Shown here one piece after another: positions 16,733-38,175 of a DNA stretch of 64,000 nt. The stretch is from Acidobacteriota bacterium (lineage in GTDB: Bacteria > Acidobacteriota > Polarisedimenticolia > J045), in contig JAUZRX010000024.1 in NCBI GenBank assembly GCA_030949985.1, forward strand, positions 2,526 through 66,525, given 5' to 3'. The notes beneath the pieces are model-generated. The model did no database searches. It had not been told where the DNA came from and saw nothing but the letters and a program-made list of their open reading frames with translations. Both the position numbers and the translations under genes were made by a program. Position 1 is the stretch's first letter; the number at the start of each line of letters is the position of its first letter.

Positions 16733-17824
16733 TCAAGCGGGCGGCCGGCAGAGGCTGAGCACGCCGTGCAGGGGGAGGGTGGTATCCCAGCGGGGATCCG
16801 CCGTACAGCGCCGCAAGACCAGCCTGCCGCGTCGTCGGAGGGCGCCGGCCTCGCTGCGATTTCCCTGGCGCAGGTAGAGTTCCGGCTGGTCGAGCAGGGC
16901 TGCGCCCCGGAGGGCCGGCAGAGCCAGTTCCCGGCTCAGGGCGATGGCCCGGCGCGACCACTTCAGCCCCTCACCGCATCGTCCGGCAAGTGCCGCGCAG
17001 CGGGCGGCCGTGCGCAGGGACTCGATGCGGACCGGAGTTTTCGGCGAGCCCATCTGCAGCGCGCGTCGGCCGAGGGTCCATGCCGCGCGGCGACGTCCCT
17101 GGCGACGATAGACCTCGGCACGCACCGTCGTGGCCAGGGCCGCCACATCGTCGTCAGTCGGCGCATCGTCCGCGGTGCCGATCGCTTCGGCCAGCTCGAG
17201 GGCCTGCTTTGAGTGCGCCGTCGCGAGATGGCTGATCGCGCCCACCAGGCGGGTGAGAGGATCCGGCCTGAGGCCTGCGACCAGCAGGCCCGCCACCGCG
17301 GCCTGTCCGCCCCCGATCTGGGCGGTGGCCAGGGCCAGCACGTCGCCCCGGGATGGGGCGGAGGGCAGGGCCAGGCGGAGTACGTGGCAGGCCGCGTTCC
17401 AGCGGCCGAGGGCGGCTTCGGCCCGGCCCCAGCTGCGCAGACTGGGGCGGTCGAGGGCGGGCTGGCTCCTGGCGTGCAGCGCTCGCAGCACCCGTGTGGC
17501 CCCGAGCAGATCGCCGGCCGCCAGTGCCTGACGCCACCGGACCCGTCCCCCCGCGCCCTCCAGAAGATCTTCATCGAGCAGGGCCGCCAGGCGTGCGGTG
17601 GTTTCTCCGACGCCCTCGCCCAGGGCGCGCAGCAGGCTGAGATAGCGGGAAAGAGTGATGTCGGCCTGGCCCGTTTCCACCCGGGAGAGATGGGAACGGG
17701 TGACACGGACGCCTTCGCCGCGGGTGGCCCGTTCCACGTCGTCGAGCGAGAGTCGGCCTTCAAGGCGGATGTGGCGCAGGGCGCGGCCGAGAGTTGAACG
17801 CAGGGTCTGCTGGCGGGGATGCAT
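16733..17824 (-). CDS. XRE-family HTH transcriptional regulator with ~280-aa helical (TPR-like) C-terminal domain
   Basis: N-terminus MHPRQQTLRSTLGRALRHIRLEGRLSLDDVERATRGEGVRVTRSHLSRVETGQADITLSRYLSLLRALG fits HTH_3; GGAGGA RBS before ATG at 17824 (track ORF extends to 17929); rest Ala/Leu/Arg-rich helical. Confidence 0.65.
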   Translation of the reverse strand: MHPRQQTLRSTLGRALRHIRLEGRLSLDDVERATRGEGVRVTRSHLSRVETGQADITLSRYLSLLRALGEGVGETTARLAALLDEDLLEGAGGRVRWRQALAAGDLLGATRVLRALHARSQPALDRPSLRSWGRAEAALGRWNAACHVLRLALPSAPSRGDVLALATAQIGGGQAAVAGLLVAGLRPDPLTRLVGAISHLATAHSKQALELAEAIGTADDAPTDDDVAALATTVRAEVYRRQGRRRAAWTLGRRALQMGSPKTPVRIESLRTAARCAALAGRCGEGLKWSRRAIALSRELALPALRGAALLDQPELYLRQGNRSEAGALRRRGRLVLRRCTADPRWDTTLPLHGVLSLCRPPA

Positions 17825-18019
17825 CGCGAGTCCTCCTTGAATATGTTTTTTCGGTAGCCCCAGAGTGCCCCCGACGGGGTAGGAAAGAAAAGGGCCCGGG
17901 GCGGAAAAAGGCGACGTGGGAGGCGACAACCGCGAAACCTCGCGCTGGAGCGTGTGTTTTTTGTTGCATCGCTGCGTCCCCGTTTTGGGAATTGCCCCCG
18001 AGAGCGGGGCGTCGGGGAC

Positions 18020-20992
18020 TCAGGCGGTGACGACGGCGATCCGGGCCCGCACCGCGGTCAGCTCTTCGAGCAGCGAGAAGACGCTTGCGGGGCGCTGATT
18101 GGGATCTTTCGAGAGCAGGCGTGTGACCAGTTCTTCCACCGGTTGCGGGATGCCTTCCCGGAATCGGGAAATCGGTGGCGGCGGCTCTTCGATTTGCAGC
18201 CGCAACACCTCCGCCACGTTGTCCGATGCGAAGGGTTCCCGGCCCGTGAGCAAAAAATAGGTCAGTACGCCGATGGCGTAGAGATCGGCGCGCTGGTCCG
18301 CGGCTTCGCCGCGGATCTGTTCCGGGGCCATGTAGGCCGGCGAGCCCATCACCAGTCCTTCGCGGGTCAGGTGCACGTCGCCCTGGCGGGCGATGCCGAA
18401 GTCCACCAGCCGGGGCCGCCCCTCCTGGTCGAGCAGGACGTTTTCAGGCTTGACGTCCCGGTGAACGATGCCCAAGCGGTGGGCGGCGGCCAGGCCCGAG
18501 GCCACGCCGGAGATGAACTCGAGCACCTGGCCGAGGGGAATGGGATGACGGTTGCCGGCCCACTGGCGCAGGTCCACTCCGTCGATGTACTCCATGACGA
18601 TGAAGCGCAGCTCGCGCCAGCGTTCGAAGGTGTGGACCCGCACGATGTTGGGATGGTTGATCTGGCGCGTGAGTCGGATTTCCTGGATGAAACGCTTTTC
18701 CACCGTCTCGCCGATGGGACCGGAGAGTACCTTCAGCGCAACGGGTTCCTCGAGCACCAGGTCCCGTGCGGCGAAGACCGTACCCATGCCGCCGCGCCCG
18801 ATTTCCCGGAGGATCTCGTAGCGGTTGGCCAGCAAGGCGCCGGGCAGCAGGTGGGTACCGTGCAACTCTTCGAGAAGCTGCTGGGCCGAGCCGAGCCGAT
18901 GGGAACGATCGGGAACCAGGCAGCCTCGCACCACGCGCTGGAGCAGGTCCGGGATCGGGTGGCCCGCCCGCTCCGGCAGCCGCGGGGCTTCGGCGCCGCG
19001 GGGCGGGGGAGGGAGCGTACCGGTGAGCATCTCCCAGGCCAGCACGCCCAGCAGATAGATATCCGAAGACGGGTCGCAGCGCTCACCGCGCAGGGACTCC
19101 GGGGAGCGGTAAGCGGCAGGGAGGGTCGGATCGTCCGAGTGACGCAGGCCGATGCCGAAGTCGATCAGTCGGGCCTCGAACGATGTGCTGATGATGATAT
19201 TTTCCGGTCGCAGGTTGCGGGCCAGCAGGCCCAGTCCGTGGGCGTAGTCCAGGGCCTCGGCCAGGCGTGTGATGACCTGGATCGATCGCGGAACGTCGAG
19301 GGGGCCTTCGCTGGACAGGATCTCCCGCAGGGACTTGCCGGCGACATGTTCCTCGACGACGAAGATTCCCGCCCCGTCCCGGCCCGCATCGTGAATCGCG
19401 GCGATCGCCGGGTGGTGCAGCCGCGCGATGCGGCGGATATCCGCAAGGATTCTCTCGGCTGCCGACTCGGTGGGAATCAGGGGGGGCGCGAAGCGGCGCA
19501 GGACGACCCGCCGCTCCATGGTGCTGTCGATGGCCAGGAAGGCCTGACCGGGAACGTAGCCCTCCAGCGGCCCCTCGATGGTGTAGCGGTCGGGGGAACT
19601 CGAGGCCGGCCCTGGCTGCTGGTCGATACGTCGTTCGATCTGGGCCAGTCGCTGGGAGGCATCCCGGTAGTTCAACTCGAGGGCCACCACGCGGCCGAGA
19701 GCCGTGGCTGCGTCCCGCAGCTTGCCGGTGCGCTCGAGTACGTTGGCCAGGCGGTACCAGCCCTCCGGATCCGGCTCCCGCTCCGGGTCCGCCAACCCCC
19801 GGCGATAGTGGTCCGCCGCCACCGAGTCCATGCCCAGCCGCTCGAAGAGTCGGCCCAGCCGCATGGCGGCAGCGGTGGCGTCCTCGCTGTCGGCCGCGAT
19901 TCCCTGGAGCACGCGCACCGCCGCGTCCACGTCACCGCAGCGCTCGTAGAGTTCGGAAGCGGTCAGCCGTTCTCCCGCTTCCTCGTAGGCCCTCGCCGCC
20001 TCCGCCAGCTGGCCGCAGGCCTCCAGGCAGCGTGCCGCGTCACGGACCGAACCCGCGTCGCGGAAATGGCGCGCGGCGTCGGCGTAGTCCCCGGCCCGCT
20101 CCATGGCCGCCGCCGCGGCGACGATGTCTCCGGCCGCTTCGTGGGCCCAGGCGGCCTCCGCCGAGCACCCCAGTTGTTCGAGGCAGCCCGCCGCCTGGCT
20201 GGGGTGTCCCGATTCCAGGTAGAGAGCCGCCGCCTCGGCCCAGCGCGAAGCGGCGCGGAAGGCCTCCGCCGCCAGTTCGGGGTCGATTTCACCGGGGTTG
20301 AGCTTCTCGGCGATCTCGGCGGCGCGTTCGTTTTCGCCCGCGGCGAGAAAGGCGCGGATGGCTCGCTCCGGTCGGTGGGCCCGGGCCCAGGCGGCGGCGG
20401 CGTCCCGTGAGCGGCCCGAGCGTTCGAGCCAGCGGGCCCCGCGGTCGGGAATGCCGCTGGCGAGAAACTGTTGCCCGAGCCGGGCCGCCAGGCCCAGCAC
20501 CTCTTTCTGGTCCACGCGGACGTTGCCCGAGCGCAACAGGCTCTCGAGGCAGCGCTCGGCCTTGTCCGGGCAGCGGGCCTCGATGAACAGCCGAGCGGCC
20601 CGAAGAAAATCGCCGGTGTGTTCGTAGAGCGTAGCCGCCGGCTCGGGATGTCCGAGTTGCTCGTGAATCTCGGCGGCCCGCCGGGCCTGGTTGGCCTGGA
20701 CGAAGAGGCGGGCGGCCCGCTCCCGGTCGCCGCAGCGGAGGGCCATCTCGGCGGCCTCGAGAGTCATGCCGCCCATCTCGTACTCCCGGGTCGCGGTGGC
20801 GTGTTCGCCGAGTTCCGAGGCGACCTGGCCGGCGAGGCGATGGTGGCGGCCTTTTTGGTACATTTTCAGCGCCTGGCTGAGTTCACCACCCAGCCGGTAG
20901 AGATCGCCCGCGGTGGAATAGTCTCCCCTCAGGGCGGCCCACCTGGCTTTTCTTGCCCATCCTCGCGCCATCATATGCTCGGGGAAGAACAT
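18020..20992 (-). CDS. Multidomain Ser/Thr protein kinase: N-terminal helical repeat array, pseudokinase domain, then active Hanks-type kinase domain
   Basis: C-terminal domain carries all catalytic motifs (GRGGMG, VALKVL, HRDVKPEN, DFG, APE). The preceding kinase-like domain has DFG but K->R (VVLRRF) and HRD->ARN. The N-terminal ~500 aa are ~19-20-aa repeats (GD..AA..Y/FE..G). Preferred start MFFPEH (GGAGATCC RBS) avoids overlap with the divergent gene; the track ORF extends to 21154. Confidence 0.8.
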   Translation of the reverse strand: MFFPEHMMARGWARKARWAALRGDYSTAGDLYRLGGELSQALKMYQKGRHHRLAGQVASELGEHATATREYEMGGMTLEAAEMALRCGDRERAARLFVQANQARRAAEIHEQLGHPEPAATLYEHTGDFLRAARLFIEARCPDKAERCLESLLRSGNVRVDQKEVLGLAARLGQQFLASGIPDRGARWLERSGRSRDAAAAWARAHRPERAIRAFLAAGENERAAEIAEKLNPGEIDPELAAEAFRAASRWAEAAALYLESGHPSQAAGCLEQLGCSAEAAWAHEAAGDIVAAAAAMERAGDYADAARHFRDAGSVRDAARCLEACGQLAEAARAYEEAGERLTASELYERCGDVDAAVRVLQGIAADSEDATAAAMRLGRLFERLGMDSVAADHYRRGLADPEREPDPEGWYRLANVLERTGKLRDAATALGRVVALELNYRDASQRLAQIERRIDQQPGPASSSPDRYTIEGPLEGYVPGQAFLAIDSTMERRVVLRRFAPPLIPTESAAERILADIRRIARLHHPAIAAIHDAGRDGAGIFVVEEHVAGKSLREILSSEGPLDVPRSIQVITRLAEALDYAHGLGLLARNLRPENIIISTSFEARLIDFGIGLRHSDDPTLPAAYRSPESLRGERCDPSSDIYLLGVLAWEMLTGTLPPPPRGAEAPRLPERAGHPIPDLLQRVVRGCLVPDRSHRLGSAQQLLEELHGTHLLPGALLANRYEILREIGRGGMGTVFAARDLVLEEPVALKVLSGPIGETVEKRFIQEIRLTRQINHPNIVRVHTFERWRELRFIVMEYIDGVDLRQWAGNRHPIPLGQVLEFISGVASGLAAAHRLGIVHRDVKPENVLLDQEGRPRLVDFGIARQGDVHLTREGLVMGSPAYMAPEQIRGEAADQRADLYAIGVLTYFLLTGREPFASDNVAEVLRLQIEEPPPPISRFREGIPQPVEELVTRLLSKDPNQRPASVFSLLEELTAVRARIAVVTA

Positions 20993-21086
20993 AGGATCTC
21001 CCCCCGCCGGGGGGCCACTACCGACTTCGGTCAGAAGTGCTGGTCTCGTGCTAGCTTGGGCGCCAGACTGGCAGAAGGAAGCCCAG

Positions 21087-22931
21087 ATGACCGCTAGACC
21101 CCTGATCGACATGTTGCGCCGGCTGACCCCACCCGCGATCGAGGAGATCCTCATGCGGGAGCGGGTGGTTCGGCGTGCCCAGGCTTACGCGGCCGAAAAT
21201 CGCGTGGACGAGGTCTGGCTCGAGCGGGGCGCCCTGCGGGCTCACGTGTCGGGATCGTCGGAAACGCCCTACCACGCCGTGATTCGCCTGCGGGAGGGGC
21301 ATCTGGATGCCGAATGTTCCTGCCCCTACGAGCGCGGGCTGTGCTGGCATGTGGGGGCCATCCTGCTGACTCTCTCGAGCCACGGAGAACTGATCGACGC
21401 CCTCGAGGAAAACCTGGCCCCCGTCCTCCAGGAGGAGGAAGGCAGCGGGCCTGCCACCGCCGAGGATGACCAGGCGGGCGCTCCGGCCCCGCAAGGCGGG
21501 GTCCGCGCTGCGGGACCCACCGCCGCCCAGCAGGCCGCCTTGCGCCAGGCCCGCCGGGAGGAAGTGCAGGAACATCTGCTGGGCTGGCCTCGCCAGCGCC
21601 TGGTGGACCTGCTGACCGAGTTGGCCCTGGACGACGCCGGAGTGGAGGCCCGGATCCAGCGTTTCCAGGAGGAGCCCACCGACATCGACCTGCGGCTTTT
21701 TCGGCAGGCTGGAAAGACGGCTCTCCGCCCGGGGGTCGTGTTGGATCGCTACGAGGTGGCCCGTATCGCCGCGGACTTGCACGAGGTGGCCGCTTCGGTG
21801 CGGCGCCTGGTCCATTCCGGGCACCCGGAGCAAGCCCTGGATCTGCTGCTGGAACTGGCCTCCATGGCCTGGGCTCGGGCGGCCGAAGTGGACGACCGGG
21901 ACGGGGCCCTCGAAGGATTCGTGCGGGAAGTCCTGCGCACCTGGATCCAGGGCTGGGAAGAGATCGACGGGCGGGACCGCCAGCGCCTGGCTCGCGAGGT
22001 TTTCGGCTGGCTGATGGAGGACGCCGGGGCCCTGACCCGAGGCCTGATCTTCGAGGGCCGTGGGACCCTCGGACCGACCGGTCTCGAGACGCTGTCGAAC
22101 CTGCTCGCGCCGTTGCTCGAGCAGCGGCAGCAGCAGCGTCCGGCCATCCTGGGCGGAGAGGATGGCTGGACCCACGCGGATCCCCTGGCGGAGCGGATTC
22201 GGGCGGCCTTGCGGGAAACCGCCGAGGCCCGTGGCGACCTGGATGAATTTCTGCGGCACTGCGACCCGTCGGGAGGGCACGGCGTCGAGGTGCTGGCGGC
22301 TGCCCGCCGCCTGGAGAGAGAGGGCCGGCTCGACGAGGCCCTGGACTGGGTCGAAAAAGGTCGTCGCCGGGCCCGCGGCACGGCCCGGGCCAGCCTCGAG
22401 GACCTGCGGATTTCCCTGCTCCACCGCCTCGGTCGCAGGCGCCAGGCCATCGAGGCCGCCTGGGAGATCTTCGTCGCTCAGCCCGGGGCCCACACCTTCG
22501 CTCGACTCCAGGAAACGGCCGGCGAGCACGAACGCGGGCAATGGCGGACCCGGGCGATCGACCATGCGGAGGCCAGTTCGGATGCCACGGCTTTCGTGGA
22601 GATTTGCCTGGCGGCCCGGGAGGTCGAGCGGTTGGCGCATCGCCTCGATGCCAGCCCGGGCTTCATCCTGGCCGCCGCGCCGACAGTCCTGGAGCGGACC
22701 GCGCTGATGCTCGAAGATCGCAGCGCCTGGGCGTCTATGAAGATCTACCAGCACCTGGCGACCCGCCTGCTCGCCGAGGGCGACGCACGGCACTACGGCA
22801 AGGTCCGGGAGCATCTGGAAGGCCTTCGCCGGGCCTGCGGGAAAGACGAGAACGGTCCTGCCTGGGAGGCACACCTCGAGCAGCTGGCCAGGAACTTCGC
22901 CGTGGTACGGGCCTGGTTCCCGTCGCCATAG
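21087..22931 (+). CDS. SWIM zinc-finger family protein (N-terminal SWIM CxCx7CxH, long helical C-terminal region)
   Basis: HLDAECSCPYERGLCWHVGAILL matches the SWIM CxCxnCxH signature; AGGAAG RBS before ATG 21087 (track ORF from 21048); divergent from the kinase gene. Confidence 0.7.
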   Translation: MTARPLIDMLRRLTPPAIEEILMRERVVRRAQAYAAENRVDEVWLERGALRAHVSGSSETPYHAVIRLREGHLDAECSCPYERGLCWHVGAILLTLSSHGELIDALEENLAPVLQEEEGSGPATAEDDQAGAPAPQGGVRAAGPTAAQQAALRQARREEVQEHLLGWPRQRLVDLLTELALDDAGVEARIQRFQEEPTDIDLRLFRQAGKTALRPGVVLDRYEVARIAADLHEVAASVRRLVHSGHPEQALDLLLELASMAWARAAEVDDRDGALEGFVREVLRTWIQGWEEIDGRDRQRLAREVFGWLMEDAGALTRGLIFEGRGTLGPTGLETLSNLLAPLLEQRQQQRPAILGGEDGWTHADPLAERIRAALRETAEARGDLDEFLRHCDPSGGHGVEVLAAARRLEREGRLDEALDWVEKGRRRARGTARASLEDLRISLLHRLGRRRQAIEAAWEIFVAQPGAHTFARLQETAGEHERGQWRTRAIDHAEASSDATAFVEICLAAREVERLAHRLDASPGFILAAAPTVLERTALMLEDRSAWASMKIYQHLATRLLAEGDARHYGKVREHLEGLRRACGKDENGPAWEAHLEQLARNFAVVRAWFPSP

Positions 22932-22965: not shown

Positions 22966-23454
22966 TCAGACTCCCGGGAGAGCTTCGAGCAGGACCACCA
23001 CCCGCGTCCCGTCGCCGTTTCCGCCGGCCTCCACCGAAGCCCAGGCGAGGGTCCCACGGATCTGGCCGATGGCCTGCTCCTCGCTGGGGTGTCTGCTGAG
23101 ATCCTCGAACTCCGGCCGGCCCACGATCGTTCGCAGGGCCTCGAGAGCGGCCGCGACGCTCTCTTCCGCCGGAAGTTGCCCGGCATCCAGCCGATACCAC
23201 GCCACCGACAGCGGGCTTGCGCCGAAGCGACCCTGGTCGAGCAATCTCCAGGATTTCGGCCAGGGCACTTCGGGCGGGGCCTCGGGCGGGGTGGCGAGAG
23301 CTCCGGCGCGTGGCCCGCCTTCCGGGAAGAGGGCTGCGCCCGTCGGGGCGTCCTCCGCTCCGGCCCGCCGGTCAGCGTTGTCGGCAGGGCCGCAACCTGC
23401 GGCCAGGAGCGTCGTCAGCAGAAGCGATGCGAGCCGGGCGCTGCGGAATCCCAT
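22966..23454 (-). CDS. Small lipoprotein (162 aa), unknown function
   Basis: MGFRSARLASLLLTTLLAAGCGPADN: signal peptide plus lipobox LAAGC. Confidence 0.55.
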   Translation of the reverse strand: MGFRSARLASLLLTTLLAAGCGPADNADRRAGAEDAPTGAALFPEGGPRAGALATPPEAPPEVPWPKSWRLLDQGRFGASPLSVAWYRLDAGQLPAEESVAAALEALRTIVGRPEFEDLSRHPSEEQAIGQIRGTLAWASVEAGGNGDGTRVVVLLEALPGV

Positions 23455-23576: not shown

Positions 23577-25022
23577 GTGCGGACGACCAGAGGAGTCGAG
23601 ACCACCCCCGTCATCGAAGCGGGTACCGAGTTCGCCGGAGGATGGCGGGTCGAGCGGGTATTGACGGAGGTTGCCGGCCTCGAAGCCTACTACGCCGTCG
23701 ATGGCGCCTACGGGCGGGCGATTTGCTTCCTGCTGCCGCCCGACGCTCCAGACCCCGAACTCGACGAGGAGGCCGCCGCAGCCTGGGGCACGACGCGCTG
23801 CATTCTGAGAGATCCGGTCCTCGGACGTATCGTCCTCGATGAAGTGCCCGAGGGACCTCTCTTCGCCGACCGGCTCGCGGAGGGCTGGACTCCCGGCGCG
23901 GCCTTCCTCGATCCGATCAGCACCGTCCTTCGCCGGGAGCACCGCCGGGGGCGCTGGCACGGTCAACTGGCGCCCGATCGTGTGGTTCTGGGAGCGGACC
24001 ACGTAGCCATCGCCGGGTGGGGACTGTGTGACGGGGACGCTTCCGATCTCAGGGCGCGGGACCTGGCAGGTCTGGCCGCCCTCTCCGGTCACGCCGATCG
24101 CTCCAGGGGCGGCGTCGGAGACGCCGGGCCCGGGGGCTCCGACAGGTCGGTGTCGCCGTCGTCCGCGGCCCTCTCCGCGCTCTGTGCCGCGATGGCTTCC
24201 GATCATCTCCCGACCCTGCGGGCGGCCCTCGATCGCTGGCGCGAAGATGGGGGAGACGAGCAAGTTCCCGAGTATCGAAGGGCGCTCGACGCCCTCGAGC
24301 GCATCGAACGCAAGGTCGACGAACACCTGGAAGCCGCTCGCCTGCAGGTCGAGCGCGGCGATCCCCTCGGGGCCGTGGCGGCCTGCCGGGAGGTCGTTCG
24401 CCTGGGCGCCGAGGACCGGGCCTTGCCCCTGATGAAGCAGGCCCGGCGCCAGGCCCGGGACATGCTCGGCGGCCGCCGGCCTTTCGTGCGCCGCGCCTGG
24501 ATTGTCGCGGCGGGAGCGGTGGGGCTGCTTCTCTGCGGCCTGCTGGGCTGGTGGTTGATGGGTCGGGGCGGGGACAGTGGCGAGATCGCGCGGCAGGCGG
24601 CACTGATGGCGCGGACGCACGGGGAGCGGGCCGTGATCGCCTGGTTGCTCGATCTCAGGGTGACGGGGGAGAGTTCCGCCGAGACCGAGGCCCTGCTCAC
24701 CGGGCACCTCCAGGCGCTGGCGGCCCAGGAACGGCAGAAGATGCTGGAGCTCCGGCGGGAAATCGTTTCCCAGGGGGCGAGGCCCCGCCAGGCCGATCGC
24801 CTGGCCGAGGAATCGCTCGCCCGGCTGGACGCCCTGGCCGCCGCCGATCCGCTCAGCGCTGGTTTCGGAACGCGCCTGACCCGGGTCCTGATCGACGTGG
24901 ACAAGGCGGCGGCCCGTTACCGGGCGGGAGCACGGATCGACAACGCCAGCGCCCTGCGGGCCGTCGAGCAACTGCTTCGCGAAGATCCTCTCTTCGGTGC
25001 GGCTGGAGGAGAAAAACGATGA
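23577..25022 (+). CDS. Membrane-anchored kinase-like pseudokinase with periplasmic helical domain
   Basis: N-terminal ~230 aa resemble a protein kinase fold with every catalytic motif degenerate (AICFLL for VAIK, HGQLAPDRVVL for HRDLKPENILL, VAIAGWGLC for DFG). Single TM AWIVAAGAVGLLLCGLLGWWLMG, then ~150-aa helical ectodomain. GTG 23577 after GAGGAG; alternative GTG 23541. Track ORF 23217 overlaps the opposite lipoprotein gene. Confidence 0.5.
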   Translation: MRTTRGVETTPVIEAGTEFAGGWRVERVLTEVAGLEAYYAVDGAYGRAICFLLPPDAPDPELDEEAAAAWGTTRCILRDPVLGRIVLDEVPEGPLFADRLAEGWTPGAAFLDPISTVLRREHRRGRWHGQLAPDRVVLGADHVAIAGWGLCDGDASDLRARDLAGLAALSGHADRSRGGVGDAGPGGSDRSVSPSSAALSALCAAMASDHLPTLRAALDRWREDGGDEQVPEYRRALDALERIERKVDEHLEAARLQVERGDPLGAVAACREVVRLGAEDRALPLMKQARRQARDMLGGRRPFVRRAWIVAAGAVGLLLCGLLGWWLMGRGGDSGEIARQAALMARTHGERAVIAWLLDLRVTGESSAETEALLTGHLQALAAQERQKMLELRREIVSQGARPRQADRLAEESLARLDALAAADPLSAGFGTRLTRVLIDVDKAAARYRAGARIDNASALRAVEQLLREDPLFGAAGGEKR

Positions 25023-26773
25023 GCGGCCTCGGTGCCATGCCCGGCAGGTTCCGGTGTCCCGCCGTCTGGGTTCTCTTCGTACTCCTGGGAGTGTCGGGGC
25101 CGAGCCAGGCGCTCCGCCTGGGGAACCGCGCTGCTGCGGACAGGAGCGCGGCGCGGCCCCTGCGGGAGGTCGATCTGGTGCGCGTACTCGCCGGCGAGGT
25201 CGAGGCGGGCGCCGCCGCGAGAGCGGCTCTCGAGCGCCTGCCCGCCCGCTGTCGACCGAGTCGGGCCCTGGCGAAGGAGGCCTGCGACGACGATCTCCGC
25301 TGCGCCTGGCTCTACGCCCGGGGCGAGGTGGTCCGTGCCTGGAGCGCTGAGGTGGCGCGGGGGCGGAAAGATGCGGCGGCCTGGCTGCACCGTGCGGCGG
25401 ACCGCCTGGCCGCCGGCGGGGCCTGCGGGCGCGGGGCGGCGCGCCGGGGAGCGTGGGAAGCCGATCGCCGCCAGGCGGCCGTGGATGATGGACGGGTTCA
25501 GCTGGCTCGGTTGCTGGAAGTGCGCCGACGGACCCACGCCGCCCTGCTGGCGGGAAGCGTCGCGCGCAGGGTGGAAGCGCTGGTGGCGGCGGCTCGTACG
25601 CAGGGTCTCGGGGCCGTCGATCCTCAGGCCCTCGCCGCCTTGCGCGGCGAGATCTTCACTGCCGCCCAGCGTGGCACGTGGTTGCTGGCCCACCCGGGGC
25701 TGGATCGGTTCCGCAAGATCCTGCAGGGGCTGTGGCAGCCCGCGGGGGGCATGCCCCAGGGCTGCGGAGACGAACTTTTCCGGCCCGATCTGCTGGACGA
25801 CCAGTGGCGCGGCTACCTGGTGCGTGAGGTCGTCCCCAGGGCCCTGTCCTGCCTGTCCGACGGTCTGCCCCGGGCCCTGGCCGGCAAGGGGCTGGCGCCC
25901 GCGGATCCCGTCGCGGGGAAGGATGTGGCCCGGGCTCTCGAGGCTCTCGCCCGGCGGGATTCCGGCGGACGCCATTTCTCGAGGGATCCTGCTCTCGGAG
26001 CCCGAATGGAGGCACTGGAAAGGGCGTTTCGCGCCGGGCGGCAGGTGGCCTCGAGGCCCGTCGCCGCGACTTCCTCTCCCGAGGCGGCCAGGCGGCCGGT
26101 GCCGGCACCTCCCCCCCGTCGGTCGCCCCGATCCTCGGGAGGCCGGGCTCCGCGGAAAGTCGCGCCCGCTCCCGCGAAGGTCGCCTCCCGCAGCGATCCC
26201 CTGCTGGTGAGGCGGGCGGAGAAGGTCCAGCGATTCCTGGAGACTCGGGAAGAACTGGTCGCCGCCGCCCGGGCGGCGAGGGACTCCCGTGCCCGCCGGC
26301 GTCTCGTCCAGCGGCTGGTGGTCGCCCTGCACCGCGGGGTGTGCGCCCCCCTCGAGAAGCTGGATCCCGTCGAACTCGCCGCCGCTCGGCGGGTCTTGCT
26401 CGACCTGGGATACCAGGCCGACGAGGCCGCCTGCAGCGCCAGGGAGGGGGAGGCCTACCTCGACCAGTTGCTGGAAGCGGCGGAAAATCTCCAGCGGCTA
26501 CGGACGGTGGCGCTGATGCGCCGGGCGGCACGGGAGATCGCCGATCGCAGCCCCAGCCTGGCGCTGGTCACCCTCGATCATGTGCCCAAGCGCTTCCAGG
26601 GGAGTTCGTGGACCCTCCTGCGGGCCTGGGCGGCCCGGGAGGAGGGTGATCACGTGACGGCCGACCGGCTGCTCTCGCGCATGGACGAGGAAACCCTCGA
26701 TCGTCTGCGCGCCAGCGGACAGGAAGAACTGGCGCGGGTGGTGGCCCACGCCTGGGTCGCGCGCTCGCCCTGA
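25019..26773 (+). CDS. Secreted/periplasmic Cys-containing helical protein (584 aa), unknown function
   Basis: ATG overlaps upstream stop (ATGA); GGAGGAG RBS; signal peptide MSGLGAMPGRFRCPAVWVLFVLLGVSGPSQA; no recognisable domain. Confidence 0.55.
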   Translation: MSGLGAMPGRFRCPAVWVLFVLLGVSGPSQALRLGNRAAADRSAARPLREVDLVRVLAGEVEAGAAARAALERLPARCRPSRALAKEACDDDLRCAWLYARGEVVRAWSAEVARGRKDAAAWLHRAADRLAAGGACGRGAARRGAWEADRRQAAVDDGRVQLARLLEVRRRTHAALLAGSVARRVEALVAAARTQGLGAVDPQALAALRGEIFTAAQRGTWLLAHPGLDRFRKILQGLWQPAGGMPQGCGDELFRPDLLDDQWRGYLVREVVPRALSCLSDGLPRALAGKGLAPADPVAGKDVARALEALARRDSGGRHFSRDPALGARMEALERAFRAGRQVASRPVAATSSPEAARRPVPAPPPRRSPRSSGGRAPRKVAPAPAKVASRSDPLLVRRAEKVQRFLETREELVAAARAARDSRARRRLVQRLVVALHRGVCAPLEKLDPVELAAARRVLLDLGYQADEAACSAREGEAYLDQLLEAAENLQRLRTVALMRRAAREIADRSPSLALVTLDHVPKRFQGSSWTLLRAWAAREEGDHVTADRLLSRMDEETLDRLRASGQEELARVVAHAWVARSP

Positions 26774-32222: not shown

Positions 32223-33725
32223 CTACTCCGAGTCGACGCTGGCGACGGCCTTGATTTCCTCTTCGCTGTGTCGGTCGCCGTCGTAGCCCAGGCGGCGGGG
32301 CTTACGGGATACGATGGTCTCCAGGTAGACCGGTCGGCGCCAGATGCGGGCGATCGACGCCAGCACTTCCTGCGCCCAGTCCAGACGCAGTTCGACACCC
32401 TCGTGGTGATGGACCAGGAGCAGTTCCGCCCGATTGCGGTAGTTGCCGTCCACGATCTCGATGATCGGCGTGCCGGCATTGGTCAACTGGAAGAGCAGGG
32501 CCCGCTTGACCTTCTCGAATTCGCGGGAGGCCAGCACCCAGGCCTCCTGGCGGGGGTCCCGTGCGAAGGTGAAGAGCTTGTGCTGGTGGCAGAATTCCGG
32601 GGTCAGAAACTCATCGATGAAGCTCAGGTCGGAGTGGACCTTGCGCACCTCGAAGATCTTTTCCCGCCCCAGGCCGGTCTCCCGTTTCCAGTTGGCCCGT
32701 TCCGCCATGTCGTCGCAACTGCGCCATTCGGGGCCGAATCGTCCCGTATTCCAGCGGAACTCGATGTCCCGGAAGAGCTCGAGGCCCAGCTTGTAGGGGT
32801 TGAGTCGGCCCGGCTGCACGGCTGTGGTTCCCGAGTGGTGATCGGCGAAGTCGATGATTTCGGTGTCGTCGAGCAGGTGCCGGGTCAGGATCGTCGTGTG
32901 CCAGTAACTGGCCCAGCCCTCGTTCATGATCTTGGTCTGGCGCTGGGGCAGGAAGTAGTAGGACTCCTTTCGGATGATGTCCAGCACGTCCTGCTCCCAG
33001 TTCTCCAGCGGCGCATGCTTGAGCAGAAAGCCGAGGATGTCCCGCTGGGGGCGTGCGGGGAAACCGCGACGCTGTTCACGCTCGCGTTCCAGCGCGGCAC
33101 GCTTGCGCTCGATGTACTCCGGCGGGTTGATGAAGGCGTCCATGTAATCCTTGGCCTTCAGGCGCTTGACTTCGATGGGCGCTTCGGAGACGTCTTCGAT
33201 CCGACCCAGGCCGTACTGCTGCTCGAAAGCCGCGTGGGGGTCGATCAGGTCTTCGATGGCCAGGCAGTCATCGAGGAAGCGTTCGATCTTGTCGATTCCG
33301 TGCTGATCGCGGTAACGCCGTACGCGTGTGGCGTGGTTGGCCATCGCGTCGATCATCCGGCGATTGGTGTTGGAGAAGAAGACGTTGTGTTTGAAAAAAT
33401 CGGCGTGGCCGTAGACATGGGCCATGACCAGCTTGTGATCGAGAAAGGAGTTGCCCTCGAGCAGGTAGGCGTAGGTCGGATCGTTGTTGATCACCATCTC
33501 GTAGATCTTGTGCAGGCCGTACTCGTAGGATTTATCGAGTTGCTGGAACTCCATGCCCCAGCGCCAGTGCGGGTAGCGGATGGGAAATCCCGTATAGGCT
33601 GCGAGCTGGTTCATCTGCGCATAGTCGACCATCTCGAAGATGACGGGGAAAGTGTCGAGTCCGTAGCGGGTGGCGACGGCTTCGACTTCCATTTGCAGTT
33701 CGGCGAGTTCCCGCGGCAGCGTCAT
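32223..33725 (-). CDS. spoVR: SpoVR/YcgB family protein
   Basis: 500 aa; [47 protein letters not shown] typical SpoVR; third gene of prkA operon. Confidence 0.9.
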
Positions 33726-33728
33726 CGC

Positions 33729-34838
33729 TCATCTCCCCGTCGAAAGAAACGAACGAATGGCTTCGGGAATGCCTTCCTTGCCCTCGATCACCGTGAGCAC
33801 CACGCGCTCGTCTTCACCGAAGGGTTTTTCGAGATCGTGCAGGTACTGGCCCGATCCGTAGGGGCTTTCCACCTGGCCGTAGGCGAAGAGGTTGAGTTCC
33901 GGGAGAAGGTCCTCCGCCAGCAGTTTGACGCAGGACTCGGTGTCTCCCTGGGACCAGTTGTCGCCGTCGGAGAACTGGAAGAGATAGAGGTTCCACTCCT
34001 CGGGAGGAAAGCGGTCCTGGATGATTTTCTGCACGAGGTGGTAGGAGCTGGAGATCACCGTGCCGCCGCTCTCCCGGGTGCTGAAGAAGGTGTCCCGGTC
34101 GACTTCCCGGGCCTGGGCGTCATGGATGACGAAGACTGTTTCCAGGCCGCGGTACTGGCTGCTCAACCAGGTGTCGATCCAGAACGAAGCGATGCGGACG
34201 ATTTCTTTCTGCTCGTCTCCCATCGATCCGGAGACGTCCATCACGTAGATGATCACCGCGTTGGCCTGGGGCTGGGGATGGGTCTGAAAGGTCCGGTAGC
34301 GTTTGTCTTCGCGGATCGGGATGATGATCGGATTCTTCGGATCATAGACCCCGGCGGCGATCTGCCGTTGCAGCGCCCGCCTGAAGGTGCGCTTGAAATG
34401 CCTGAGGGACTCCGGTCCCGCGTGGGAGATCCCGGTGTAACGTCCCGAGTGGGTTTCGATGTTCTTCTTGCCCCGGGGTTGGATTCGAGGCAGCTCGAGT
34501 TCTTCGCCCAGCAGTTCCGCGAGTTCCTCGATGGTCAGATCGACCTCGAGGATGTGTTCGCCGGGCAGATTGCCGGCCTTGCCCCGGCCGTCACCCTGCT
34601 GGCCGGCAGGTCCCAGAATGCTGCCTTCCTCGCCTTCTCCCTGTCCGACGTGCTGTTGACCGCCGGGGGAGTGGACGAAGCGTGGGGTTTGAATCCGCGG
34701 CAGGGGAATGGAAACGATGTTCTTTCCCTTGCGTCCGAGCATCTCGCCGCGCGACATGAAGCGCCGCAGCTCGTCGCGGACCTTGCCGCGGACGATTTCG
34801 CGGAAGCGTCCGACATCGGTGTCGATCTTGAGGGCCAC
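33729..34838 (-). CDS. yhbH: YeaH/YhbH family protein (DUF444, VWA-like)
   Basis: 369 aa; Gly/Gln-rich linker then [20 protein letters not shown] (MIDAS-like) typical DUF444. Confidence 0.9.
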
Positions 34839-34853
34839 GTTCTGTCCCGCCCG

Positions 34854-36908
34854 TCAGTCCGTGTCCTTGGCATCGCCCCGGGCAAAAATGCTCGCGACGA
34901 AATGCAGCACGTCGGTGGCGCTTTCGTCGTTGTAGCCGTAGTCCTTGATCAGGCGCGCCTTGACCACGTCGATCTTCTCCTGGGTTTCCTTGTCGACGAT
35001 GGAGGTCACCAGGGAAGTCAGCTTGATCGTGTCCTTCTGGTCCTCGAAAAGCTTGAGTTCGAGAGCCTTGTGCAGTCGTTCGTTGGAGCGGTAGTCGAAC
35101 TTCTTCTCGTCCACTGCAAGGGCGCCGATGTAATTCATGATCTCCCGCCGGAAGTCGTCTTTCCGGTTGTCGGGGATGTCGATCTTTTCCTCGATCGAGC
35201 GCATCAGCCGTTCATCGGGTGGCTCGTCCTGGCCGGTGTAGGGGTTGCGGACCTTTTCCCGCTGGGTATAGGCCTTGACATTGTCCAGGTAGTTGGCGCA
35301 GAGCCGGGAGATCGCCGCCTCGTCGGCGGCGATGGCCCGCTGCACCTCGTTCTTGACGATGTCTTCGTACTCCTTGCGCACCTCGGCGAGCAGTTCGCGG
35401 TAGCGCGCGCGATCCTCCTCGTTGCTGATCAGCGAGTGGTGGCGCAGTCCCGCTTCGAGTTCGCGGAGGACCATGAAGGGGTTGATATGGTTGGCGGTGT
35501 CGTCCACCAGCGCGTTGGAGATCTTGTCCTGGATATAGCGCGGCGAGATGCCGTCGAGCCCTTCGCGGGCCGCACTCTTGCGCAGTTCCTTGACGTTGTC
35601 TTCGGTGTAGCCCGGAAGGGTCTTGCCGTTGTAGAGCTTGAGCTTCTGCATCAGCGTCAGGTTGTGCTTCTTGGGCTCTTCCAGCCGCGTCAGCACGGCC
35701 CACATGGCGGCCATCTCGACCGTGTGCGGGGCGATGTGCTTGCCGATGCGCTCGTTGTTGAAGTCTTTCGCGTAGATCTTGATCTCTTCGCTGAGCTTGG
35801 TGATGTAGGGAATGTCGACCTTCACCGTCCGGTCCCGCAGGGCCTCCATGTATTCGTTGTTCAGCAGCTTGCGGTACTCGGGTTCGTTGGTGTGGCCGAT
35901 GATCACCTCGTCGATGTCGGTCTGGGGGAACTTTTTCGGCTTGATCTTGTGCTCCTGGGAGGCGCCGAGCAGGTCGTAGAGGAAGGCGACGTCCAGCTTG
36001 AGGACCTCGACGAACTCGATCAGGCCGCGGTTGGCGATGTTGAATTCGCCGTCGAAGTTGAAAGCGCGGGGATCGGAGTCGGAGCCGTATTGGGCGATCT
36101 TGCGGTAGTTGATGTCGCCGGTCAGTTCGGTGGAGTCCTGGTTCTTCTCATCCTTCGGCTGGAAGGTGCCGATGCCGACGCGGTCCTTTTCGGAGAGAAT
36201 CAGCCGTCGGACTCGAATGTGGGCCAGCACTTGGGCCAGGTCGCCCTCGAAGCGCTGCATCAGCTCGCTGAATTGCTGGCGGCAGAAGGGACAGAGATCG
36301 CGCTCGATGCGTACCTGGTAGTCGGAGCCCGAGGCGTTGAGTTGTTCGACGACCGCCGGGCGAGTGGATTCCGGCAACAGGTGCAGCGGCTCCTCGTGCA
36401 TCGGGCACCAATCGACCGGCGCGCCGGGGTCGTCGGGCTTGGCGGTCCAGCCGAAGGTGTAGAGCATGCCCTCCTGGGAGCGGGAGTAGGCTTCGAGCCC
36501 CTTCTTGAGCAGCCGGACGATGGTGCTCTTGGCCGAGCCTACCGGACCATGGAGCAGGATCACGCGTTTTTCGGTGCCATAGCGCCGGGCGGCGGACTTG
36601 AAGATGTTCATCAACTTCATCAGCGAAATGTCGAGCCCGAAGACACCGTCGATGCCGCCGCCGAGAGGGTCGTCGAAGAAGTGGTAGTGAGTCATCCGCT
36701 TCTTGTTGTCGATGTACTCGGAAGTACCGTAGGACATGATCATGTCGTAGAGGCGCTCGTGGGCGCTGCGCGTGATGCGGGGTTGCTCGCGCACCATGCC
36801 GAGGTAGTCGGTGAAGGATCCGGTCCAGTGCTGCTTTTTGAACTGCTCCCGGTTCTGTGCGCTGGTGATCGCCTCTAGAATGCTCTTGCCGGTGTCTGTG
36901 GTGGCCAT
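34854..36908 (-). CDS. prkA: PrkA/YeaG-family serine protein kinase (AAA+ N-domain)
   Basis: Walker [14 protein letters not shown], 684 aa; start MATTD (track ORF extends 14 codons further). Confidence 0.95.
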
Positions 36909-37002
36909 GGTCTGGGCTCCTGTGGCTCGGATTCTCCGGCGGGGCCGCACCGGTCTCGCGGGAGTCCGCGCTGCTGCGGCAGCTTCACTTCGAAGATAGC
37001 TT

Positions 37003-38175
37003 TTGGGAGAAACCGGGGCAATGCAAAAGAGTTACGACACGGGGGCCGCGCTCCGCGGGGAAGGCGCGGTGCTGGTGCTGGAGGGGGCGCTGCATCCTCC
37101 GGGCGTGGCCCTGGTTCGCCGGGGCGAGGTTGTCGCCGCGGTGGATGTCAGCCGGGAGAAAGGCCCCAGCGGGGGGCTCGGAGCGGCCGCGGCGGCCATG
37201 CTGGTGCGGCCGGAGGCCCGGCGGCTCTCGGCCGTGGTGGTGGATTGCGGGCCGGGATCGTTCACCGGGCTGCGGGTGGCCTTGAGCTTTGCGCAGGGAT
37301 TGATCGCCGGGATCCCGGGGCTGGCGGGCTTGGGGGTCGATGCGCCCCGGGTGCTGACTTTCGGCGCCGGGCTGGGCTTTCCGGCACTCGTGGCCATTCC
37401 CTGGGGGCGTCTTCGCGTCTTGCTCGCCGAGGCGGGGATAGACGGCAGGCTGCGGGGCGAGGTGATCGCCCGGGAGGCTCTCTCCGGCCGGGGAGCGATC
37501 GCCGGCCGGGACGTGGCCACCACCGCCGCCGGGGCGTCGCTCGATTTCCCGGCCGGTGTGCAAGCCCATCCGCTGAGCGTGTCTCCGGTGGCCGTGCTGG
37601 CGGAGATGGTCGCCGGAGGCTGTGTGCCCGCCTCCGCCTGGCGGCCCCTGGAGCCGGTCTACCTGGTGCCACCCGATGCCGTGCTGCCGGCTCCCGCCCG
37701 GGTCGCGTCGTCCCCGGCGGCGGTGACGATCTTCGGTCCCTCTCGGCTCGCGGCCCTCGAGGCCTTGCTCGCGGCAGCCTTTGAGCGTCCCTGGAGTCGG
37801 GCCATGGTGCAGGAGGAACTGGCCGATCGGGACGATCGACGGGTCCTGGGGTGGCTCGACCGGGACGGGTGCGTCGGTGCGGCCATCTTCTTGCGCCGGA
37901 CGGGGGACAACCTCGAGATCCTCAACCTGGCGGTGCATCCTGATTATCGTCGGCGGGGCCTGGGGCGTCTTCTCGTGCAGGAGGCGATCGGGCGCGCGCG
38001 GCAGGAGGGGCTGCGGCAGGTGGACCTGGAAGTCTCCGAGGCGAACGTGGCAGCCGTGCGGCTCTACGAGACGGAGGGTTTCGTTCCGGTCGGGAGCCGG
38101 CCGCGCTACTACCCCGACGGCAGCGCCGCACTGCTGATGAGCCTGGTGCTCAGACGGGCTTCGGAGCCGGGATGA
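37003..38175 (+). CDS. tsaB: TsaB (tRNA t6A biosynthesis, YeaZ) fused to RimI GNAT acetyltransferase
   Basis: N-terminal ~220 aa: [33 protein letters not shown] (TsaB). C-terminal ~150 aa: [51 protein letters not shown] (RimI). Confidence 0.8.

Follow-up and report, generated by a model that had tools for sequence, protein, structure and literature searches.

What is a SWIM zinc-finger protein doing back to back with a Ser/Thr kinase on the chromosome of an uncultured bacterium? The question is raised by a pair of divergently transcribed genes in a 64,000-nucleotide stretch of contig JAUZRX010000024.1, from an Acidobacteriota metagenome-assembled genome (MAG); the whole of this stretch is what we call the window. 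One gene, at 21087-22931 on the + strand, encodes a 614-residue protein (stop codon included in the coordinates) with an N-terminal SWIM zinc finger and a C-terminal domain of the DUF6880 family. The other, at 18020-20971 on the - strand, encodes a 983-residue protein, again with its stop included and counted from a conserved ATG, in which Pfam recognises tetratricopeptide-repeat (TPR) families and two stretches of Pkinase. An earlier note on this DNA had remarked on the pairing, and had suggested that the SWIM protein might be a nucleic-acid- or protein-binding effector of the kinase, or its substrate. As far as genome comparison can tell, the pairing is real, conserved, unusual and specific to one narrow Acidobacteriota lineage. 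Our tentative reading is that the two genes form a Ser/Thr signalling module, the SWIM protein being the kinase's protein-binding partner in the role of adaptor, sensor or regulatory subunit.

The conservation of the pair was examined through the relatives of the SWIM protein. There are 27 close homologues, of about 600 residues and 45-100% identity, and all those with a source name come from Acidobacteriota; when each GTDB species was represented by one genome and scanned with 25 close sequences, 18 loci came to light, all of them in Acidobacteriota MAGs. The proteins encoded around the pair in the window were compared by tblastn with these 18 loci and with five contexts retrieved through exact protein matches. 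In each of the 16 further loci with upstream DNA, the tandem kinase, at full length and 59-70% identity, lies directly upstream of the SWIM gene and is divergent from it; three other loci begin within the SWIM gene and are uninformative for pairing. The co-occurrence that had been proposed as a check on the association is therefore found, and the pair is nowhere broken although the SWIM proteins have diverged to 47-57% and the kinases to 59-70% identity.

The genes on either side are less constant. At most loci the order is that of the window (context A): HAD, an HTH/TPR gene, the kinase, then in the opposite direction the SWIM gene, in places a lipoprotein gene, two unannotated genes, IF3 and ALDH. 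In context B (L004, L017, L020) the pair is flanked on one side by ABC2 and hybrid histidine kinase (HK-RR) genes and on the other by genes for YbjQ, anti-sigma, ECF sigma, MFS and NAD kinase, and in context C (L023) by ALDH, SDR and GT2 genes on one side and HMGL, HK-RR and DEAD helicase genes on the other. Since the pair is kept in three unrelated contexts, it is the pair and not the neighbourhood that forms the conserved unit, one that has outlived at least two rearrangements replacing both flanks. All three contexts are housekeeping or metabolic in character, and no mobile-element or defence genes were seen in them. The window itself is core chromosome, of 62-73% GC, whose surrounding genes specify ribosomal proteins, RpoA, CarB, IF3 (infC), a ClpB-like ATPase, PNPase and IF-2.

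The association is not one that Hanks-type kinases show in general. None of 80 arbitrary metagenome Hanks-kinase loci carried a SWIM/DUF6880 homologue within 6 kb, and none of the three contexts of related TPR single-kinase genes had a SWIM/DUF6880 neighbour. Nor do the SWIM protein's own relatives commonly have such company: a kinase was absent from all five contexts examined for the nearest, actinobacterial, SWIM-DUF6880 genes, and the distant members of the family found on plasmids have no kinase neighbour. The earlier impression that pairing with a kinase is unusual for such a protein is in this respect borne out. The gene divergent from one related kinase (L108) was considered as a possible cryptic DUF6880 member; the comparison was negative.

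The reading frame of the SWIM protein is a real one. Its product corresponds exactly (100% identity) to the NCBI MAG protein Q9Q40_07295; the same initiating Met is present in 25 of 25 acidobacterial homologues, whose lengths run from 593 to 623 residues, and the composition at the three codon positions (GC1/2/3 = 0.77/0.50/0.81) is that of a coding frame. The match to the Pfam SWIM family PF04434, at residues 74-96, is borderline (20.8 bits, E 2.8e-4, with the gathering cutoff at 19.6), and precomputed Pfam annotation assigns SWIM to some orthologues only; it lies nonetheless above the cutoff, so that the other check proposed in the earlier note likewise speaks for the observation. The zinc-knuckle signature, CSCPYERGLCWH (residues 77-88; 21315-21350, +), reads CxCx6CxH, so that the N-terminal SWIM motif proposed for this protein is real while the x7 spacing first given to it was one residue too long. 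Its putative ligands, C77, C79, C86 and H88, are unchanged in 26 of 26 sequences, including a 28%-identical actinobacterial relative in which the spacing is x8. For comparison, a chance CxCx(6-25)CxH would be expected about 4e-4 times per protein, given the 6 Cys and 21 His among the 614 residues. In an AlphaFold2 (AF2) model the knuckle is predicted to comprise strands 62-69 and 72-77 followed by a helix, 87-98, with pLDDT of about 90. The HMM score, the conserved ligands and the predicted beta-hairpin plus helix concur in assigning a SWIM zinc finger, its binding of zinc being putative.

The AF2 model, built on 25 homologues, has an overall pLDDT of 86.6 and divides the protein into three parts. 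The N-terminal SWIM module (residues 1-100; 21087-21386, +) is predicted to consist of three helices, a four-stranded sheet that leads into the zinc knuckle, and a helix, an order of three helices, four strands and helix that the model places within residues 1-118; mean column conservation over the module is 0.69. It is followed by a variable, acidic, disordered linker (residues 115-142; 21429-21512, +; pLDDT <50), within a region, residues 101-165, where conservation falls to 0.37 and length varies among orthologues from 48 to 71 residues. The remainder (residues 146-610; 21522-22916, +) is modelled as an all-alpha solenoid of TPR/HEAT-like type, its helices running from H146 to H610, an assignment with which Foldseek and Pfam agree; the DUF6880 match (PF21810, 84.3 bits against a cutoff of 27.3, E 1.3e-23) spans residues 218-596 and positions 67-452 of the 472 in the family model. 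The initial description of a helical protein of about 614 residues was thus apt. NCBI names relatives of the protein either "DUF6880 family protein" or "SWIM zinc finger family protein".

Two further properties bear on what such a protein might bind. The whole protein is acidic (pI 5.6), and the SWIM module carries a mean net charge of -2.4 over the orthologues; since the module is not basic, the nucleic-acid-binding role that had been offered as one option is weakened. Pfam detected no HTH or other DNA-binding domain in it. Taken as a whole, this is a cytoplasmic, acidic protein in which a small SWIM module is joined by a flexible linker to a DUF6880 solenoid of about 465 residues. No solved structure in the PDB has a sequence relationship to it. 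When its model was compared with the PDB by Foldseek the top match was ZSWIM8 (9rwz_M, E 3.5e-5, 11% identity), with a TM-score of only 0.17, a value to be expected of flexible solenoids; the next matches were generic TPR/HEAT scaffolds, namely APC/C subunits, the TPR domain of OGT, LGN, Ctr9 and IFT-A.

The partner gene is the only kinase gene in the window, as its neighbour is the only SWIM/DUF6880 gene. Its product begins with a TPR-like repeat domain (residues 1-455; 19607-20971, -) matched by TPR_14, SNAP and TPR_IF140 of Pfam, and continues with two kinase-like domains whose fates have been quite different, as seen from an alignment of 12 orthologues at 60-70% identity. In the first (residues 462-705; 18857-19588, -), which Pfam recognises as a further Pkinase stretch, the beta3 Lys of the VAIK motif is replaced by Arg (VLRRF) and the Asp of HRD by N, T or S (LARNLRPE in the window) in all 12 proteins, and one subclade has in addition converted DFG to RFG. 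The other (residues 718-975; 18047-18820, -; Pkinase E 2.6e-76) is a canonical Hanks-type kinase domain: GRGGMGTVF, VALK, QEIRL, HRDVKPEN, DFG and SPAYMAPE are invariant in the 12 orthologues, as is the activation-loop Thr869, and the region as a whole is nearly so. A kinase-domain HMM scores 89 bits on the first domain and 551 on the second. The gene is accordingly a pseudokinase-kinase tandem, because the first domain has lost two catalytic residues and the second keeps every catalytic motif; this agrees with the tandem partner originally described, the first domain being predicted to be inactive. That degeneracy should be kept beside a nearly invariant active domain suggests a regulated signalling enzyme with docking domains, of which such a combination is typical.

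The TPR domain has relatives of its own. It is homologous, at 27-33% identity over more than 90% of its length, to that of proteins of about 700-800 residues with a single kinase domain in Vicinamibacteria and Myxococcota. These share with the window protein the N-terminal TPR domain and an active C-terminal kinase, but lack both the inserted pseudokinase and the SWIM/DUF6880 neighbour. Comparison by hhalign of DUF6880 with the kinase TPR domain revealed no detectable relationship between the two. One of the single-kinase relatives (L107, 6001-13018) is followed by a 1568-residue CHAT-nSTAND-WD40 protein, a neighbour of conflict-system type. At another locus (L012, 4965-7926, -) the orthologue of the tandem kinase itself is broken into two frames near residues 495-502, through a frameshift or an assembly error.

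Between the two genes lies a short divergent region (20972-21086). Its length, put at 94 nt in the earlier note, depends on which ATG starts the kinase. The one at 20971 is kept in 12 orthologues; that at 20992 falls inside a conserved non-coding motif which in 9 of 13 orthologues contains no start codon, and the gap is therefore about 115 nt. Across the 16 loci it varies from 60 to 180 nt. Alignment of 13 intergenic regions showed this motif to be the sole conserved non-coding block, GAA[C/G]ATAGG on the + strand or TAT[G/C]TT on that of the kinase (20987-20995, -), situated 13-19 nt before the kinase ATG; in the subclade of the window the variable base happens to create the spurious upstream ATG. 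The block is a candidate, and a likely one, for the -10 element of the kinase gene, with a very short leader. The intergenic region and its surroundings yielded neither a sigma-70 consensus promoter nor a match to Rfam.

How might the two proteins act together? On the scheme we propose, the solenoid and SWIM module would capture a ligand or client protein; the SWIM-solenoid protein would dock on the TPR domain of the kinase, on its pseudokinase domain, or on both; and docking would gate or target the one kinase domain that is active. The signalling served by the module would be endogenous, of a housekeeping or stress-related kind, rather than part of mobile defence. We are led to suppose a protein-binding character because the solenoid resembles TPR/HEAT scaffolds, ZSWIM8 best among them, and because the SWIM module is not basic. 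We are led to suppose a signalling module because the pair is strictly conserved, the specificity controls were negative, a dead kinase domain is joined to a live one, the setting is that of the core chromosome and the genes share a control region. What the sequences show is how the domains are arranged, that a dead kinase domain accompanies a live one, that the pair is strictly conserved and that it sits in the core chromosome; that the two proteins touch, which way the signal runs and what process it serves are deduced from the genomes of uncultured organisms, and the scheme should be read with that in mind.

Two eukaryotic proteins make the scheme easier to picture. ZSWIM8, a CUL3 substrate receptor, also has a SWIM domain followed by a long alpha-helical solenoid; there it is the SWIM domain that organises the assembly, while the substrate is held in the clamp of the solenoid (PMC13083262). 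The N-terminal module of the window protein, at about 100 residues, nevertheless has no room for a BC box, a CUL3 box or a D-domain, and no ubiquitin machinery is to be expected here. ZSWIM8 thus serves as an architectural analogy, providing a working model, SWIM plus solenoid as macromolecule receptor, and not as a family to which the window protein might belong. MEKK1 (MAP3K1) brings together a Ser/Thr kinase, a HEAT-like TOG domain and a SWIM domain whose presumed ligand is a client protein (PMC7474687), a set that in the window is split over two adjacent genes. In MEKK1, however, all three stand in one chain, which also carries a RING domain and lacks a pseudokinase, and the resemblance is one of domain combination only.

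The bacterial comparison made at the outset was with SWIM proteins whose partners are MoxR-VWA (YehQ-type) or SNF2/DpdE helicases. They have in common with the window protein the N-terminal module of beta-sheet and CxCxnCxH, but in none of the three contexts does Pfam show a MoxR, VWA or SNF2 gene near the pair, and stand-alone proteins of defence islands, grouped by PADLOC as PDC-S62, turned out to offer the closer comparison.

These relatives emerged from a profile search of 1.84 billion representatives (clusters at 50% identity), which returned 11,032 relatives, 687 of them at E <= 1e-30. Members of the acidobacterial clade scored 765, 562 and 457 bits, after which the next match dropped to 324 bits. 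The nearest outgroup is a large clade of Actinomycetota (421 matches) with the same SWIM plus DUF6880 architecture in about 585 residues, whose homology to the window protein is still detectable (28% identity, E 4e-11). The actinobacterial proteins match PDC-S62 over its full length (positions 7-560 of 566, 149-178 bits, E 1e-44 to 1e-53), and they also match the N-terminus of DpdE. The label PDC covers 145 untested "phage defence candidates" that owe their definition to "guilt-by-embedding", their genes being found inside BREX, DISARM or type I restriction-modification (R-M) systems (bioRxiv 10.1101/2024.01.29.577857). Two of our actinobacterial loci, L024 (7001-8662) and L110 (7001-8752), have the SWIM-DUF6880 gene between hsdS and hsdM of a type I R-M operon and so reproduce independently the pattern by which PDCs were defined; AbiE, integrase, Fic or transposase genes lie near by. 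Other actinobacterial SWIM-DUF6880 genes adjoin AbiE, PIN/Phd, AAA_14-DUF4143, AAA_21-RloB, integrase and transposase genes. Plasmids encode more distant DUF6880 proteins that lack SWIM, whose genes either have Fic and an ATPase/S8-peptidase pair for neighbours or lie among insertion sequences. At one locus (L025; 11968-13212, -) a SWIM-less DUF6880 protein of 414 residues adjoins an AAA_14-DUF4143 ATPase, and the same defence island also carries a full SWIM-DUF6880 gene followed by another AAA_14-DUF4143 gene, so that the association of DUF6880 with such ATPases may be a recurrent one.

The window protein resembles PDC-S62 in having the same two domains, a similar size (about 585 residues in PDC-S62), invariant zinc ligands, and DDxDG and other solenoid motifs. 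Yet its match to the profile covers the SWIM module alone (residues 27-100 against positions 22-94 of 566; 28 bits, E 1.8e-7), and where PDC-S62 genes stand alone or are embedded in R-M operons without a kinase, those of its own clade are always kinase-paired. Judged by this partial match, by the kinase partner and by the housekeeping setting, it is not a member of PDC-S62. In the literature that could be searched DUF6880 went unmentioned, and we met no paper that deals with PDC-S62 or with bacterial SWIM proteins combined with Hanks kinases.

Given such relatives, the pair might be a chromosomally fixed anti-phage or conflict system in which the SWIM-solenoid protein, by descent a member of a defence-island family, would detect some molecule of the invader, the tandem kinase acting as effector and the pseudokinase as decoy or regulator. 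Its nearest outside relatives are, after all, full-length PDC-S62 candidates that sit inside type I R-M operons or beside AbiE, PIN toxins, AAA_21-RloB and integrases; Ser/Thr kinases are known in several defence systems, and the window kinase matches the PADLOC models PD-T4-6, MADS6 and MkoA. These kinase matches, however, are of a generic sort and do not reach the NCBIfam cutoffs, and beyond them a PADLOC scan of the window called no system. PDC-S62 is itself a candidate, and its profile reaches no further into the window protein than the SWIM module. The three contexts, free of mobile and defence genes, the vertical synteny maintained although the proteins are only about 50% identical, and a kinase domain close to invariant, unlike proteins engaged in an arms race, all argue against such a system, as does the lack of relatives of the acidobacterial SWIM clade in phage genomes or viral contigs. 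We consider a defence function unlikely. About as unlikely, in our estimation, is that the SWIM-solenoid protein lies downstream of the kinase and is mainly its substrate, phosphorylation of the linker or of a conserved loop switching what the solenoid binds. Hanks kinases often phosphorylate the products of neighbouring genes, the pair is conserved and a disordered linker is present; of the three Ser/Thr positions conserved in the protein (78, 432 and 501), that at 432 lies in a basic loop, GRRRARG[T/S]AR, and that at 501 might also be counted in favour. But the linker, at only 11% S+T, has no Ser or Thr conserved across the orthologues, and Pfam showed neither an FHA-domain protein nor a PP2C phosphatase in the cluster in the contexts examined. 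At the level of sequence, substrate and regulator look alike.

A more sceptical reading takes the genes to be functionally independent, their adjacency being synteny inherited within a young lineage and held perhaps by a shared bidirectional promoter. It has in its favour that a single Acidobacteriota lineage supplies all the examples, that the wider synteny from HAD to IF3/ALDH is common to most loci, and that relatives of each protein work without the other partner. Against this stand the unchanged geometry of the pair through two or more rearrangements in which the flanks on both sides were exchanged, and the want of a single break in it at 47-57% (SWIM) and 59-70% (kinase) identity, and we regard mere inheritance as rather improbable. 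Least credible of all, and very improbable, is that the SWIM protein binds DNA and controls transcription of the kinase gene, after the classical pattern of regulators that are encoded divergently. The layout and the short shared control region with its conserved motif would suit such a regulator; in the original proposal SWIM figured as a module that might bind DNA, and N-terminal modules of this kind are found on DNA enzymes, such as DpdE, whose N-terminus the relatives match. A neutral to acidic module in a protein of pI 5.6, no recognisable DNA-binding domain, and a solenoid of 465 residues atypical of a repressor or activator would not, and the conserved motif is more simply taken as the kinase -10 element.

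The two-gene signalling module that we favour must in turn answer several points. All pair members come from uncultured MAGs of one narrow Acidobacteriota lineage, whose shared ancestry inflates the count of loci; the kinase-linked clade amounts to some 3 of the 11,032 representatives, and relatives of either partner occur without the other. Approached from the kinase side, a metagenome scan with the alignment of its TPR and pseudokinase domains returned the 80 ordinary Hanks-kinase loci that served above as a control and no orthologues, and a search for homologues of the TPR domain gave paralogous single-kinase proteins and two fragments, missing the full-length orthologues. The linker offers no conserved Ser or Thr. 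The ZSWIM8 match, with so low a TM-score, is architectural only. Each of these weighs against the module as we conceive it.

The gene in the window thus belongs to known, uncharacterised SWIM/DUF6880 families, and what is new is the coupling to a kinase. To our knowledge no function is known for DUF6880/SWIM proteins, the sole functional lead being the label of defence candidate; in a family whose representatives, clustered at 50% identity, exceed 11,000, the kinase-linked sub-lineage supplies a first candidate enzymatic partner and with it an experimental handle. It also adds a bacterial pseudokinase-kinase tandem with a dedicated non-kinase partner to an arrangement currently discussed mainly for plant immunity. 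A bolder view would be that a sensor family of defence islands (SWIM plus DUF6880, as in PDC-S62) was recruited in a single lineage of Acidobacteriota and there permanently coupled to a pseudokinase-kinase, so that the receptor reads a macromolecular cue derived from an invader or from stress and switches on the Hanks kinase through docking on its pseudokinase or TPR domain. We think this improbable; were it true, the pair would be a previously undescribed prokaryotic sensor-kinase pair, and a split bacterial counterpart of the SWIM-bearing MEKK1 or of the tandem-kinase immune receptors of plants. If defence ancestry is real, an immune sensor would have been domesticated into core signalling, or the reverse.

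Some neighbouring genes of the window deserve mention. On the kinase side, the next gene downstream on that strand, 90 nt away, is an HTH_31 (XRE-type) plus TPR gene (16733-17929, -); the loci of context A have kept it and those of B and C lack it, and its product may help as an accessory to regulate output. A small open reading frame (ORF) of lipoprotein type (22966-23454, -) runs convergently to the SWIM gene, whose signal peptide ends in LAAGC; it matches no family and is conserved at 35-46% identity in L006, L009, L016 and L021. Beyond it, two genes (23601-25022 and 25016-26773, both +) are conserved in synteny and have no Pfam, NCBIfam or PADLOC match; since contexts B and C lack them both, the pair does not require them as partners. 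The product of the first has a transmembrane segment and, in its N-terminal part, a stretch, AH..G.(A/W)HG.L.P..VVLG...AGWGL, which can be aligned to the kinase over its HRD...DFG region, with H114, H120, G121, G139 and W140 invariant in 11 orthologues. The similarity has no statistical support, hhalign giving a probability of 0.4%, nor is there support for a pseudokinase cluster, as mentioned in the earlier note, that would extend past the tandem kinase itself.

Composition changes along the window. Between about 14000 and 16000 the GC content rises from about 0.62, in the block of ribosomal protein, rpoA and carB genes, to about 0.70 in the HAD/kinase/SWIM region. Further on, an operon (32223-37031, -) comprising PrkA, with its AAA and PrkA kinase-like domains, an ORF at 33729-34853 and SpoVR has a GC content of about 0.61-0.62, clearly below the 0.69 or so of the DNA that flanks it.

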